A stretch of DNA of 44,150 bases, taken from a virus. Taxonomy: Duplodnaviria > Heunggongvirae > Uroviricota > Caudoviricetes. Under the pieces are notes generated by a model. It was given only the letters and a program-made list of their open reading frames with translations. It made no database searches and was not told where the DNA came from. How positions within the stretch are numbered: position 1 is the first letter of the stretch; each line of letters begins with the position of its first letter. Of the stretch, positions 17,434-19,480 are shown one piece after another. Both the position numbers and the translations under genes were made by a program. The DNA lies in the IMG/VR virus record IMGVR_UViG_3300045988_030968, positions 1 through 44,150 of that record. One strand, given 5' to 3'.

Positions 17434-17633
17434 CCAGCATCTTATTTATCTGGGTATTGTCCGCAGGCCAGATGCAACTAGCGGCATCAGAAACGTTTTA
17501 CTCGATGGAGGCGTGCCAGTCAGCGGCACGCGCCGCAGAGAACGCGCACTTCCTGTTTCAGGGTGACAAGCCTAATGATTCAGAGGTACGCGCTATCTGC
17601 GCACCTAAGCGACTTGGTAAACAGGAGAAATAA
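17430..17633 (+). CDS. Small protein with N-terminal signal-peptide-like segment
   Basis: MTSILFIWVLSAGQMQLAASE; ATG overlaps upstream stop (ATGA). Confidence 0.45.
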   Translation: MTSILFIWVLSAGQMQLAASETFYSMEACQSAARAAENAHFLFQGDKPNDSEVRAICAPKRLGKQEK

Positions 17634-17926
17634 TGACTCTTGCAACTGACATCCTGAAACGAAGCGGCCTTGCGCCGCTGTCGCCGAGAGCTAAAACACA
17701 GATATACAAGCGTCGAGGTAACGCGCTGTACCCTGAGATTCAGGCCAGACGTAAGGCGGTACGCGCCTGTGGATTCCAGAACGGGAAGGCCGTGAATCTC
17801 GGTGAGTTTAAAACACAGGAACGCGCCGCTATCGCTAATCGGTTATTTAATTACTGGAAATCGCTGGGGTATGAAGATATTCCGACTAAACCACAGAGAC
17901 GACAATACATCTGGAGGCACAAATGA
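17633..17926 (+). CDS. Hypothetical basic protein
   Basis: 97 aa; ATG overlaps upstream stop. Confidence 0.5.
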   Translation: MTLATDILKRSGLAPLSPRAKTQIYKRRGNALYPEIQARRKAVRACGFQNGKAVNLGEFKTQERAAIANRLFNYWKSLGYEDIPTKPQRRQYIWRHK

Positions 17927-18363
17927 CTACTATCGCGTTCGACGGAAAGACAATGGCCTGTGACACGCGTGTTGTGTGCGGAAGTAACTGTTACAACACA
18001 GACACGAAGATATACGAGAATGATTTTGTTGTTATCGGGGCGGCTGGTGATGCCGGAGTAGGGGATATTCTCGTTGGTGATCGAGGAATTTTAGTACCTA
18101 AGCACTATGACTTCGATTTCGAAGCTCTGGTATTCGTGAAAGACACAGAAAAGGTGTATAAAGTCGCGTTCTACAAATCGTGGGATTGCGCACTTAGTTC
18201 AGTTATTCCAATCGCTGATAGCTTTGCTGCCGTAGGCTCCGGTTCTCCTTATGCATTAGCGGCTATGGAGTGCGAATATTCGGCGCATGGCGGAGTGGCC
18301 GTTGCATCGAAGTTTGACACTAACACCGGCGGCAAGATTATTACCAAACAACTATTAGGATAA
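17923..18363 (+). CDS. HslV / proteasome-beta-like Ntn-hydrolase (T1 peptidase fold)
   Basis: 146 aa; N-terminal MTTIAFDG (Thr nucleophile after Met), KIYENDFVVIGAAGDAG, and AVGSGSPYALAA matching HslV GSGGPYA region; GGAGG RBS. Confidence 0.6.
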   Translation: MTTIAFDGKTMACDTRVVCGSNCYNTDTKIYENDFVVIGAAGDAGVGDILVGDRGILVPKHYDFDFEALVFVKDTEKVYKVAFYKSWDCALSSVIPIADSFAAVGSGSPYALAAMECEYSAHGGVAVASKFDTNTGGKIITKQLLG

Positions 18364-18422
18364 TTCCTACCCGTGGTATCCTCCAGTTACTGCATACTTA
18401 ATACGCACCTGGAGGATTCATC

Positions 18423-18731
18423 TTGGATAAATTTACTGAAACAGTGACAGGCTGGCTTCTCGCTGCCGCACTCGCCGGAGGGGTAATCGGACTACGGCAG
18501 CATAAGTCCGTTATTTCTGGCCCTATCGACGGCTTCTGCTTTATCGCAACTGGCTTCACTTGCGCCGTATTTGGGGCACCTCTCGCGGCTCAATGGTTCG
18601 GTATCACTGGCGACCGTGAAATCGCTGGTCTGGGCTTTATCATCGCTATTCTCTGGATGCCTATCTATTCCCGTCTCTCCGGTATCGTCGCCGGAGAATA
18701 CATCGCACGTCGAGGAGGCCCAGATGAATGA
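18423..18731 (+). CDS. Membrane protein, putative holin
   Basis: 102 aa, three hydrophobic segments; TTG start 6 nt after GGAGGA; immediately upstream of endolysin. Confidence 0.5.
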   Translation: MDKFTETVTGWLLAAALAGGVIGLRQHKSVISGPIDGFCFIATGFTCAVFGAPLAAQWFGITGDREIAGLGFIIAILWMPIYSRLSGIVAGEYIARRGGPDE

Positions 18732-18996
18732 GTTATTCTGGTTCGGCGGTATGCTGGCAATCGGAGGCACATCGCTGTTTAACGTGTATCACCCCCGCGT
18801 TGACGATGGGCTATTTGGCCGGGTGCTCTATATCCTGACCGCTATTGTCTGCGCTGCCGGATGTATCCACCTGTTACAGGGCAGCATGTCACCTACGTTG
18901 CCTGAGACATTAATCACATTAGTTGCGCTGCGTCAGATTCGTCAGGCGTGGCTATCGTACGGAGGACATAAGCGTGTCTCGAAACATTTCAGATAA
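18724..18996 (+). CDS. Second small membrane protein (holin/antiholin candidate)
   Basis: 90 aa from internal ATG of track ORF 18571..18996; two hydrophobic segments; ATG overlaps upstream stop. Confidence 0.45.
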   Translation: MNELFWFGGMLAIGGTSLFNVYHPRVDDGLFGRVLYILTAIVCAAGCIHLLQGSMSPTLPETLITLVALRQIRQAWLSYGGHKRVSKHFR

Positions 18997-19480
18997 TGGG
19001 CTGCATTTCACCGCTGCGTTCGAGGGTTTCCGTGGAACTGCATACAAAGCAACAAAGAACGAAAAACACTGGACTATAGGCTGGGGCCATACCGGGCCTG
19101 ATGTGTACGAAGGGCAGAAGATTACCGAAGGTCAGGGGTTGCTGTTGCTGAACCGCGATATGCAGTGGGCTGTGAAAGCAGTCGATGAAGTCGCGCACCC
19201 ATCGCTGACACAGGCTCAGTTTGACGCCGTTGTTGACCTGGTGTTCAACGCAGGGACTGGCGTGATTGCGGCTACGACAGGGACGGGTAAGGCACTACGG
19301 CGGGGAGACATCCCTACATTACGGCACAAGATGAGTCAGTTCATCAACCAGCGCAACCCGAAAACCGGTAAACTTGAGCCTGTGCTCGGCCTTCGTCGCC
19401 GTACCGCCGGGCGTCTGGCACTGTTCGACGGCAAACCGTGGCGGGAGGCTGAGGCTATCGGGCGCGCGGTGAAAGGTTGA
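18974..19480 (+). CDS. Endolysin, GH24-type lysozyme (muramidase)
   Basis: GLHFTAAFEGFRGTAYKATKNEKHWTIGWGHT catalytic region; GTG 18974 preceded by GGAGGA; track ORF begins 18923. Confidence 0.75.
   Translation: MSRNISDNGLHFTAAFEGFRGTAYKATKNEKHWTIGWGHTGPDVYEGQKITEGQGLLLLNRDMQWAVKAVDEVAHPSLTQAQFDAVVDLVFNAGTGVIAATTGTGKALRRGDIPTLRHKMSQFINQRNPKTGKLEPVLGLRRRTAGRLALFDGKPWREAEAIGRAVKG

Follow-up and report, generated by a model that had tools for sequence, protein, structure and literature searches.

Introduction

The closest described relatives of the protein analysed here are the PPH proteins (phage mini-proteasome homologs) of tailed phages, a family described in 2021 by Fuchs et al. (PMC8665760). 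According to that description, PPH proteins are encoded by tailed phages or prophages, have about 140 residues in a single domain, are built on a proteasome-like beta-sheet core (S1-S11) with flanking helices, carry Thr1, Asp17 and Lys33 together with Gly47, and lack both a propeptide and helix H2; in the authors' words, 'PPH/RPC lacks the second helix (H2)' (PMC8665760). The authors assigned the family to 'group I', which also holds HslV and the beta-proteobacterial proteasome homolog BPH, and saw it radiate from the cluster of BPH; WP_042125023.1 represents the PPH set, and AAH, RPC and CPH are separate sets (PMC8665760). No co-occurrence of PPH with an AAA+ gene was seen in the same study (PMC8665760). 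Our literature searches found no experimental or biochemical work on any PPH, be it purification, assay or knockout.

We analysed a PPH-type gene in a window of 44,150 nucleotides, the whole stretch of virus DNA under study, which looks like a near-complete genome of the Kagunavirus type, a coliphage. An earlier note on this DNA had read the gene as encoding an HslV- or proteasome-beta-like peptidase with an N-terminal Thr and without a cognate ATPase.

The locus and its surroundings

The 146-residue open reading frame described in the earlier note is present where it was placed and begins as stated, behind a strong Shine-Dalgarno sequence. It comes directly ahead of the lysis genes (holin, holin, endolysin), also as claimed. 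The features of the locus are as follows.

17633..17926, plus strand: upstream gene of 97 aa, function unassigned, phrog_9632; its stop overlaps the PPH start by ATGA
17913..17917, plus strand: Shine-Dalgarno sequence GGAGG, 5 nt before ATG 17923, read directly from the sequence
17923..18363, plus strand: coding sequence of the PPH-type proteasome homolog (N-terminal-Thr Ntn-hydrolase), 146 aa, based on the ORF, profiles, AF2 model and dN/dS
18378..18417, plus strand: hairpin in the spacer between PPH and holin, dG -23.8 kcal/mol, z -3.4, with its 3' arm over the holin Shine-Dalgarno sequence
18423..19480, plus strand: lysis cassette, with holin I at 18423-18731, holin II at 18724-18996 and endolysin at about 18974-19480

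ATG 17923 is the earliest start available downstream of a stop codon, and the GGAGG in front of it fixes the PPH N-terminus as Met-Thr-Thr (the translation opens with MTTIAFDGKTMACDT..., reading MTTIAFDG). Among the top 150 family representatives, MT stands at the N-terminus in 141, and the median length is 147 aa. Both segments that had been quoted as HslV-type, KIYENDFVVIGAAGDAG and AVGSGSPYALAA, were found in the product.

The gene sits within a block of small unassigned ORFs that separates the replication module from the lysis module. The lysis genes were recognised by PHROG matches (holin 3.8e-29, endolysin ~1e-36), and their order is the same as in the annotations of Ent2, RP180 and EC3-1. 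The spacer between PPH and holin is near-identical in four Kagunaviruses, although pS in the gene is ~0.5. In Jerseyvirus a terminator-like hairpin lies between the PPH gene and the lysis genes. Across phage lineages the context of the PPH gene differs from one to another. We rejected the translationally coupled upstream gene as a conserved partner of PPH, since the flanking proteins, phrog_9632 among them, have homologs in Guernseyvirinae alone. A role as prohead protease was likewise rejected, given the distance between the gene and the head module and the presence of a family member in the T7-like podophage Paz. Promoter-like and terminator-like counts showed no excess over shuffled controls, so 'early' timing cannot be read from the sequence; the sole Kagunavirus transcriptome paper does not resolve the PPH gene.

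Profiles and a structural model identify the proteasome fold

The product matched PHROG 1040 at E=4.8e-35. Its relationship to the proteasome fold was far less visible when the sequence was used singly. As a single query it reached E=1.2e-4 and 22.2 bits against the Pfam Proteasome model PF00227 (MEROPS T1 superfamily level), just short of the gathering cut-off of 22.4, and E=0.05-0.2 against HslV and beta chains in the PDB. Single-sequence and shallow-profile searches of the PDB returned nothing significant, and hhalign with a shallow alignment gave just 50% probability. A deep alignment from an exhaustive search was required for significant HslV and beta matches. The resulting profile of 98 family sequences matched the PDB entries of HslV (1m4y, 3.6e-11), beta5 (5e-11) and BPH (5ovs, 3.4e-10), and hhalign against E. 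coli HslV gave 96.9% probability and E=1.3e-10, with residues 1-136 aligned to 1-165 and Thr on Thr. PF00227 was matched by 54 of the 98 members, the best at 1.4e-10. Judged by these alignments, the HslV resemblance of the product exceeds chance, though it is visible just with profiles, and the product is roughly as far from HslV as it is from 20S beta and from BPH.

The AF2 model of the protein had a pLDDT of 94.7 and a pTM of 0.89; with 36 close homologs alone the pLDDT was 52 and the model was not usable. A Foldseek search of the PDB with the AF2 model brought up solely HslV, 20S beta and Anbu, the highest TMq being 0.69. In BFVD, 37 phage structure clusters share the PPH fold by Foldseek, with matches to the T1 family only. 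Profile search and structure prediction, which had been proposed as checks, thus both led to the T1 fold (family profile ~1e-10 to 1e-11; AF2 and Foldseek). The profile and fold evidence is decisive for the superfamily: the 146-aa product is a genuine proteasome-type Ntn-hydrolase.

The catalytic set is conserved and the gene is under purifying selection

We assessed conservation in two sets, A1 with the 36 close homologs and A2 with 98 diverse homologs at 29-39% identity. The positions that correspond to the catalytic constellation of the proteasome family are listed below.

17926..17928, plus strand: Thr2 codon, the predicted nucleophile (Thr1 once Met is removed); invariant in A1, at least 90% in A2; aligns with HslV Thr1
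17962..17964, plus strand: Asp14 codon, equivalent to proteasome/HslV Asp17; invariant in A1 and A2; hhalign alignment
18007..18009, plus strand: Lys29 codon, equivalent to Lys33; invariant in A1 and A2; family-profile and hhalign alignments
18037..18048, plus strand: G39-A-A-G42 motif; G39 and G42 invariant in A1, G42 invariant in A2
18235..18243, plus strand: G105-S106-G107 motif; in A2, G105 and G107 invariant and S106 at least 90%
18316..18333, plus strand: D132-T-N-T135-G-G motif; D132, T135 and G137 invariant in A1, D132 at least 90% in A2

In the hhalign alignment, G39 and G42 fall on HslV G45 and G48, the oxyanion-hole glycine region that holds Gly47 in proteasome numbering. The G105-S106-G107 motif corresponds to HslV G123-S124-G125 and to proteasome Ser129 in the PDB, profile and hhalign alignments. 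The D132-T-N-T135-G-G motif aligns with Asp166, Ser169 and Gly170 of proteasome beta subunits ('..rDaySGG' of beta5 in the family profile), and hhalign showed no such motif at the same position of E. coli HslV. The protein has the proteasome-beta fold and the full catalytic set, with no propeptide. The gene is under strong purifying selection, with dN/dS of 0.056-0.15.

The H1/H2 face is largely lost

The region that sets the protein apart structurally from HslV is given below.

18058..18117, plus strand: residues 46-65, a 6-residue H1 remnant and a loop replacing H2; from AF2 secondary structure and the hhalign gap

Between strands 36-42 and 66-72 the AF2 model contains a single helix at residues 46-51, followed by coil, and in the hhalign alignment PPH has a gap of ~30 residues against H1/H2 of HslV. 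The short H1 and the absent H2 are the structural hallmark that parts PPH from HslV. The pocket of HslV that receives the C-terminal tail of HslU has been described as F54, F57, A79, K80 and Q114 (PMC6429459). By hhalign, D48, V51 and I95 stand opposite F54, F57 and Q114, and the positions of A79 and K80 are deleted, so that none of the five is kept, in a poorly conserved region where the alignment is of low confidence. The NCBIfam HslV models TIGR03692 and NF003964 gave no match to the query at E<=0.01 (~20 bits, where hundreds are needed); 31 of the 98 relatives matched them weakly, the best at 2.5e-7 and far under the cut-off, as against 42 of 98 that matched the archaeal beta model. Lacking H2 and the greater part of H1, retaining none of the five pocket residues and falling far short of the NCBIfam HslV cut-offs, the phage protein is not an HslV orthologue. 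The earlier reading of the protein was supported with respect to an N-terminal-Thr peptidase of the HslV/proteasome-beta kind, on the strength of profile, fold, catalytic residues and genome content; the specifically HslV-type assignment did not hold, since PPH forms a separate clade (PMC8665760). Recent capture of host hslV as an auxiliary metabolic gene was rejected on similar grounds: the protein falls short of the HslV models, H2 is absent and the clade is deep and phage-wide.

PHROG scans of all large ORFs found no AAA+ unfoldase or HslU-like gene in the whole window, which bears out the claim that a cognate ATPase is missing. Nor did an unfoldase adjoin the family gene in 10 other phage lineages. 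One family member was found in a Microbacterium phage, that is, an actinophage, and no HslV is listed for Actinobacteria in Table 1 of Fuchs et al. (PMC8665760). We conclude that PPH probably acts without HslU. It had been proposed that the protein may use a host unfoldase or work alone. The missing H2 and the lost pocket residues disfavour host HslU, and acting alone is the half of that proposal that is now favoured.

An ordinary member of a widespread phage family

The product showed the described features of PPH: its length, the Ntn fold, the missing H2, the catalytic set without a propeptide, and a phage gene without AAA+. On these features it is almost certainly a PPH-type T1 hydrolase. 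We detected no departure from the family, and the gene is an ordinary member of a group that is already known and routinely annotated. The novelty that the earlier note implied has fallen away: the family was named in 2021, and near-identical phage proteins in GenBank, at 93-96%, already carry the label "peptidase HslV family".

Homologs were found in 298-539 phage records. PPH is a near-core gene of Guernseyvirinae (298 records), and many phage groups unrelated to one another contain scattered members. The exhaustive search returned 4,662 clusters at 50% identity and E<=1e-3, compared with 324 nr90 sequences reported in 2021. This suggests that the PPH clade is much larger than in that report, with a cluster set that probably takes in the neighbouring RPC and AAH-like groups. 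The Cassita protein, for instance, may belong to a clade neighbouring PPH and lie outside PPH proper, since it has ~176 aa and an insert of full-length H1/H2 size. JSS1_004 was rejected as a characterised homolog: it is a gp0.7-type kinase from the T7-like JSS1, and the "hslV" of that paper refers to host genes.

Proposed mode of action and its alternatives

The best overall explanation, to which we assign a probability of about 0.6, is that PPH is a cytoplasmic, homo-oligomeric peptidase independent of HslU and ATP. It is probably catalytically active. Host methionine aminopeptidase would take off Met1, leaving Thr2 as a free N-terminal nucleophile that needs no autoprocessing. The Thr O-gamma would then attack the peptide (amide) carbonyl, aided by Lys29 and Asp14, with an oxyanion hole formed from the G39/G42 region and the site braced by Ser106, Asp132 and Thr135. 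The substrates might be disordered polypeptides, or one specific host or phage protein. A cytoplasmic location is expected, as the protein lacks a signal peptide and its N-terminus has to be free. H3 and H4 make the ring-ring contacts in beta subunits, and the H1/H2 face is the docking site of HslU or the alpha ring. Since PPH keeps helices H3 and H4 and has largely lost the H1/H2 face, a homo-oligomer independent of HslU and ATP would be expected. Against this explanation, isolated proteasome-family subunits are usually inactive before assembly. HslV is nearly inactive without HslU, and PPH may therefore need an activator.

One alternative retains the host unfoldase: PPH would take the place of HslV on the HslU hexamer or compete with it there, and would either make up a hybrid ATP-dependent protease of altered specificity or titrate HslU away. 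The identical MTTI N-terminus of PPH and E. coli HslV points this way, as does the E. coli host, which encodes HslU (hslV and hslU are adjacent there). We counted these two observations against the best explanation. It also draws on the position of PPH in 'group I' beside HslV and BPH (PMC8665760), and on the hosts of the sampled PPH-carrying phages, nearly all of them Proteobacteria, which possess HslUV. We nevertheless consider it distinctly unlikely, given the absence of H2 and most of H1, the loss of all five pocket residues, a profile that does not favour HslV over beta5 or BPH, the actinophage member and the published lack of AAA+ co-occurrence (PMC8665760). A different chemistry can also be imagined, in which PPH resembles connectase and is a ligase or transpeptidase with sequence specificity, or in which it works as an amidase on a non-protein substrate. 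Among proteasome homologs, helices on the H1/H2 face are lost only in connectase (H1 and H2) and in PPH/RPC (H2); connectase is a monomeric, highly specific ligase, and the Ntn-hydrolase clan is chemically versatile (PMC8665760). However, the two-helix S3/S4 insertion of connectase is absent, the PPH model running from strand to strand at residues 16-32; the sequence and fold neighbours of PPH are proteases; and no candidate substrate gene co-occurs with it, so that this reading seems very improbable. A catalytically dead scaffold, comparable to proteasome alpha subunits, is extremely improbable in view of catalytic positions conserved over 98 sequences at ~30% identity, a Thr next to the start codon in 141 of 150 representatives and dN/dS of 0.06-0.15.

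Other alternatives concern the purpose of the activity. In line with the host-takeover or anti-defence role suggested in the earlier note, PPH might degrade a particular host protein early in infection, for example a defence effector or a factor involved in stress or regulation, which would be compatible with the chemistry of the best explanation. The location in a small-ORF block between replication and lysis modules, a spread that resembles a mobile single-gene module (unrelated phages, no conserved neighbours) and the Jerseyvirus hairpin that parts PPH from the lysis genes fit this role. Yet no PADLOC family is similar to PPH, and near-core status in Guernseyvirinae with strong purifying selection is unlike typical anti-defence genes with their fast turnover; the role is unlikely, and both it and the 'early' timing are pure speculation. 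PPH might instead tune lysis timing by processing or degrading a lysis regulator, be it holin or antiholin, endolysin, a spanin precursor or a host protein for envelope maintenance. The gene lies directly 5' of holin-holin-endolysin throughout Guernseyvirinae and directly 3' of endolysin and spanins in Xylella phage Paz, the next gene in Providencia PSTCR4 has a muralytic domain (6.6e-40), the nieznany gene is two genes away from a lysozyme, and the holin spacer is highly conserved with a hairpin that occludes the Shine-Dalgarno sequence. This reading is quite improbable all the same: lysis genes are absent nearby in Ccr32, SPFM13, Vibrio 424E50-1, PEi21, VLCpiM12a and Cassita, other lineages have PPH next to DNA ligase, PNK, HNH or terminase, accessory genes gather anyway at module borders, where lysis cassettes sit, and the protein would be cytoplasmic. 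A more far-reaching idea, which we also regard as unlikely, makes PPH a functional type of its own among the proteasome homologs, one that is independent of an unfoldase, possibly assembles openly or to a low order, and cuts or ligates a host or phage protein at one specific site. With its H1/H2 docking face gone, it would be nearer to connectase than to HslV in its logic, and its recurrent neighbourhood to lysis genes, seen in four unrelated lineages, could then be a sign that it controls lysis or the homeostasis of the envelope.

The gene alone adds nothing new to a family already described. The family is large: hundreds of phages with sequenced genomes carry it, Salmonella and E. coli phages that are candidates for therapy among them, and it makes up thousands of metagenome clusters. 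To learn what a minimal proteasome homolog does during infection when it has no unfoldase, a Kagunavirus that grows on E. coli K-12-type hosts is a convenient choice, and Bas73, a close relative, belongs to the BASEL collection. PPH could reveal how much of the proteasome fold suffices for activity and assembly.

Comparison with described systems

HslV (ClpQ) is the peptidase subunit of bacterial HslUV and forms a dodecameric double ring under allosteric activation by HslU. With HslV, PPH shares the Ntn fold, a Thr1 exposed by Met removal alone behind the same MTTI, the Asp17, Lys33 and G-S-G motifs, and a compact build without S12 or H5. It differs in being 30 aa shorter (146 vs 176, in agreement with the claim that it is shorter than bacterial HslV), in lacking H2, in an H1 cut to 6 residues, in having no adjacent hslU, and in a proteasome-beta-like D-x-x-T-G-G that is absent in E. 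coli HslV. BPH (5ovs) is likewise a group I homolog, apparently free of an unfoldase, and its profile similarity (3.4e-10) is like that of HslV. However, BPH has ~200 aa, both H1 and H2, a long acidic pore loop and a tetradecameric assembly, whereas PPH lacks H2.

The 20S beta subunits (archaeal, actinobacterial and eukaryotic beta5) resemble PPH in fold and in every part of the catalytic constellation, the Asp166/Ser169-type motif among them. These subunits lose an N-terminal propeptide by autocatalysis and assemble together with alpha subunits. PPH differs from them in having no propeptide, with Thr directly after Met, no H2 and no C-terminal H5, and is ~50-60 aa shorter; PHROG scans of the large ORFs found no alpha-subunit-like gene in the window. 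Connectase, an archaeal proteasome-like protein ligase, lacks H1 and H2 and carries a two-helix S3-S4 lid, whereas PPH has neither feature: it keeps a short H1, and its residues 16-32 form short strands and turns only in the AF2 model. PPH and connectase are alike in that the H1/H2 side of the sandwich has lost helices and that neither has an unfoldase.

The gene and its start

The earlier note had described an HslV- or proteasome-beta-like peptidase encoded apart from any cognate ATPase. Its open reading frame was present exactly as claimed, and both HslV-type motifs quoted for it occurred in the 146-aa product. We refer to the gene as PPH, after the phage proteasome homolog family; its surroundings are as follows.

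Features of the PPH region
17633..17926, + strand: upstream gene of 97 codons, its stop overlapping the PPH start by ATGA
17913-17917, + strand: Shine-Dalgarno GGAGG, 5-nt spacing to the PPH ATG
17923..18363, + strand: PPH coding sequence, 146 codons, beginning MTTIAFDGKTMACDT
18364-18422: spacer of 59 nt, PPH stop to holin start codon (TTG)
18378-18386 and 18409-18417: arms of a spacer hairpin (dG -23.8 kcal/mol, z -3.4)
18724-18996: second holin, probable ATG at 18724 by alignment with annotated relatives
18974-19480: endolysin, probable GTG at 18974 by the same alignment

The ATG at 17923 is the earliest possible start past the in-frame stop and, together with the GGAGG and the ATGA overlap, leaves the N-terminus well defined as Met-Thr-Thr. 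Of the 150 best family representatives, 141 begin Met-Thr and 124 begin MTT, so the family has no propeptide; propeptides are confined to beta subunits and HslV (Fuchs et al., PMC8665760). A 4-nt ATGA-type overlap with the upstream stop was seen at 17923-17926 and in the PPH loci L003, L004, L005, L008 and L009 (3501-3504) of other phages. These are six unrelated lineages whose upstream proteins are not mutually homologous, a recurrence that suggests repeated selection of translational coupling for the PPH gene.

Family assignment and predicted fold

Judged from the single PPH sequence, the resemblance to HslV appeared borderline. The Pfam Proteasome model PF00227 matched at E=1.2e-4 with 22.2 bits (gathering score 22.4), and phmmer against PDB chains returned 0.047 for proteasome beta and 0.19 for HslV. 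A profile built from 36 close homologs gave no improvement over the single-sequence search. In PHROGs, phrog_1040 ('peptidase HslV family') matched the product at 4.8e-35. An exhaustive HMM search covering 1.84 billion cluster representatives yielded 4,662 relatives at E<=1e-3, of which 379 passed E<=1e-10; most were 135-160 aa long and aligned from residue 1. From these relatives, 98 with 29-39% identity to the query made up a diverse alignment, A2. PF00227 was matched individually by 54 of the 98 (best 1.4e-10), and the A2 profile matched the solved structures of HslV (1m4y, 3.6e-11), human beta5 (5e-11) and the beta-proteobacterial homolog BPH (5ovs, 3.4e-10). With hhalign, the PPH family aligned to E. 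coli HslV at 96.9% probability (E=1.3e-10; residues 1-136 against 1-165), Thr being paired with Thr. These A2-based matches settled the question of HslV resemblance, so that the profile search proposed in the earlier note ended in significant T1-type matches.

Structure prediction, also proposed there, agreed. AlphaFold2 reached a pLDDT of 52 on a shallow alignment and of 94.7 (pTM 0.89) on A2, and Foldseek matched the model to T1-family chains only in the PDB: HslV 6kui and 1m4y (TMq 0.67-0.69), eukaryotic, archaeal and mycobacterial beta subunits, and Anbu. In the model, N-terminal strands lead into a helix of six residues (46-51), residues 52-65 form a loop in place of the remainder of H1 and the whole of H2 of HslV, and four strands are followed by helices 108-116 and 121-131 (H3 and H4) and a last strand. 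In BFVD, 37 clusters of phage proteins share the fold. The best viral structural match, A0A1W6DWU9 (54% identity over 131 columns), is nearly twice as long at 263 aa and might represent a fusion, a wrongly called start or another architecture.

According to Fuchs et al. (PMC8665760), all proteasome homologs keep a Thr1/Asp17/Lys33 triad and Gly47, and 'PPH/RPC ... lacks the second helix (H2)'. Each published defining feature of PPH, checked one by one, was found in the window protein, which on these features is an ordinary family member. The gene is therefore not novel, the family having been described in 2021 and already annotated. No experimental study of PPH turned up in the searchable literature; JSS1_004, considered as a studied homolog, was rejected as an unrelated T7-type kinase. 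What remains of interest is only what PPH does, and phages of this coliphage lineage would make a convenient model for that.

Distribution and gene context

The PPH region shows ~87% DNA identity with E. coli Kagunavirus phages of the Guernseyvirinae (for example UTEC10, KMB36, phiEc3 and BASEL Bas73). PHROG scans of all large ORFs showed a near-complete siphophage genome, encoding terminase, portal, head, tape-measure and tail proteins, tailspike, helicase, methyltransferase, DNA polymerase, SSB, exonuclease and helicase-primase. No unfoldase of HslU, ClpX or Lon type was among these ORFs, confirming that a cognate ATPase is absent. The central reading of the earlier note is supported. Fuchs et al. 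(PMC8665760) found no AAA+ partner co-occurring with PPH and no genomic context that was informative.

With the PPH protein as query, tblastn returned 298 phage records (258 Salmonella Jerseyvirus-type, ~30 E. coli Kagunavirus) labelled 'peptidase HslV family', 'ATP-dependent protease', 'protease', 'NTN-hydrolase superfamily protein' or hypothetical. More distant members as queries returned 400-540 records, including rV5-like myophages, jumbo phages of Erwinia, Salmonella, Proteus and Pseudomonas, giant siphophages of Caulobacter and Brevundimonas, and phages of Xylella, Xanthomonas, Ralstonia, Rhizobium, Vibrio, Klebsiella, Edwardsiella and Providencia. Throughout the Guernseyvirinae, the window included, the order is small ORFs, a 97-121-aa ORF, PPH, holin, holin, endolysin. 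The context was also sampled in ten other lineages.

PPH neighbourhoods outside the Guernseyvirinae
Xylella Paz: directly after endolysin, i-spanin and o-spanin
Providencia PSTCR4: followed by a gene with a muralytic domain
nieznany: lysozyme two genes away
PEi21, VLCpiM12a: within a small island amid tail genes
Ccr32, SPFM13, Vibrio 424E50-1, Cassita: amid unknowns or nucleotide-metabolism genes
other lineages: adjoining DNA ligase, PNK, HNH or terminase

Neighbour proteins were homologous only inside the Guernseyvirinae, which indicates that PPH moves as a single-gene module. In two unrelated large myophages, Escherichia phage nieznany (L006:2198-4184) and Vibrio phage 424E50-1 (L010:1834-4367), a PhoH-like ATPase is followed by a small ORF and then by a long PPH-like protein. 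The long proteins, of 230 and 288 aa, carry an acidic C-terminal extension and are possibly of the 'RPC' type. PhoH belongs to the P-loop ATPases and not to the AAA+ unfoldases.

In the window the lysis genes overlap each other, and the probable starts of the second holin and endolysin lie inside longer mechanical ORFs (18571.. and 18923..). The GGAGG Shine-Dalgarno of the holin sits in the 3' arm of the spacer hairpin, which may control translation of the holin. KMB36, RP180 and EC3-1 carry virtually the same spacer sequence, while synonymous sites of the adjacent gene differ by ~50%. In the Salmonella Jerseyvirus vB_SenS-Ent2, the gap between gp48 and the holin gp49 (L001:4475-4513) holds a 12-bp hairpin followed by the U-run UUUUUUAUU, of classic intrinsic-terminator shape (z -2.9) and unrelated in sequence to the window spacer. 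This hints that in Ent2 PPH ends the upstream transcription unit and the lysis genes open a new one. A promoter-like site (18314-18341; TTGACA, 16 nt, GATTAT; 10/12 matches) lies within the last part of the PPH gene, a short way ahead of the holin; promoter-like counts in the PPH region showed no excess over shuffled expectation. Such sequence signals gave no timing for PPH, and the one Kagunavirus transcriptome paper does not single the gene out.

Catalytic residues and proposed mechanism

D14, K29, G42, G105 and G107 were invariant in all 98 A2 sequences, and M1, T2, S106 and D132 were conserved in at least 90%; among the 36 close homologs, T2, D14, K29, G39, G42, G105, G107, D132, T135 and G137 were invariant. 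By alignment, the conserved positions correspond to Thr1, Asp17, Lys33, the Gly45/47 region and Ser129 (HslV Ser124), and also to the Asp166/Ser169/Gly170 motif of proteasome beta subunits. Bacterial methionine aminopeptidase cleaves Met preceding Thr, the source of Thr1 in HslV. In PPH, Met removal would expose Thr2, whose hydroxyl would attack the peptide carbonyl aided by Lys29 and Asp14, and the glycine-rich loop with a Ser106/Asp132/Thr135 network would complete a proteasome-type active site.

In beta subunits, ring-ring contacts run through H3 and H4 (PMC8665760). Both helices are kept in PPH, and the H1/H2 face is mostly lost. This face is the docking side for the alpha ring or HslU. 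From this pattern in the model we would expect a cytoplasmic homo-oligomer, active without ATP and without HslU, that might act on disordered polypeptides or on one specific target.

Five rivals were named: hijacking of host HslU, a protease for anti-defence or host takeover, a regulator of lysis, ligase chemistry like that of connectase, and a pseudo-enzyme. By its dN/dS values of 0.056-0.15 against four relatives (synonymous sites close to saturation), PPH is under constraint and almost certainly a functional enzyme, as opposed to a decaying capture or a pseudo-enzyme. Regulation of lysis draws on the adjacency to lysis genes, which occurs in about 4 of 15 lineages and is suggestive at most. 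For an anti-defence role, PADLOC defence families showed no link to PPH. Hijack of host HslU bears on the relation to HslV, taken up below; the evidence there favours a PPH that acts without HslU.

Relation to HslV and HslU

The window PPH is not an HslV orthologue. The A2 profile is about equally far from HslV, beta5 and BPH, and in NCBIfam the archaeal beta model was touched by 42 of the 98 A2 members and the HslV models by 31 and 30, all far under cut-off. The HslV residues with a reported role in holding the HslU C-terminus, F54, F57, A79, K80 and Q114 (PMC6429459), correspond in PPH to D48, V51, two deleted positions (H2) and I95, so that 0 of 5 are kept in this low-confidence hhalign segment, a loss that argues against orthology, short of proof.

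Microbacterium phage Cassita carries a clear family member (hhalign 99.4%), and Table 1 of Fuchs et al. (PMC8665760) lists no HslV for Actinobacteria, which argues indirectly that the wider group does not strictly depend on HslU as a partner. The Cassita protein, ~176 aa, may belong to a neighbouring clade. Its gene 16 'protease' (L014:2216-2746) has an annotated GTG start that yields a protein without the catalytic Thr. In frame upstream lies AGAAGGAGA-gtaatc-ATC-ACT-ACC-ATT-GCG, reading (M)TTIA behind a strong Shine-Dalgarno, so translation probably begins at a non-canonical ATC codon, with the annotated start in error. The H1/H2 segment of the Cassita protein has the length of that of HslV. 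PPH and proteasome beta subunits share the Asp166/Ser169/Gly170-type motif, whereas E. coli HslV has none at the aligned position.
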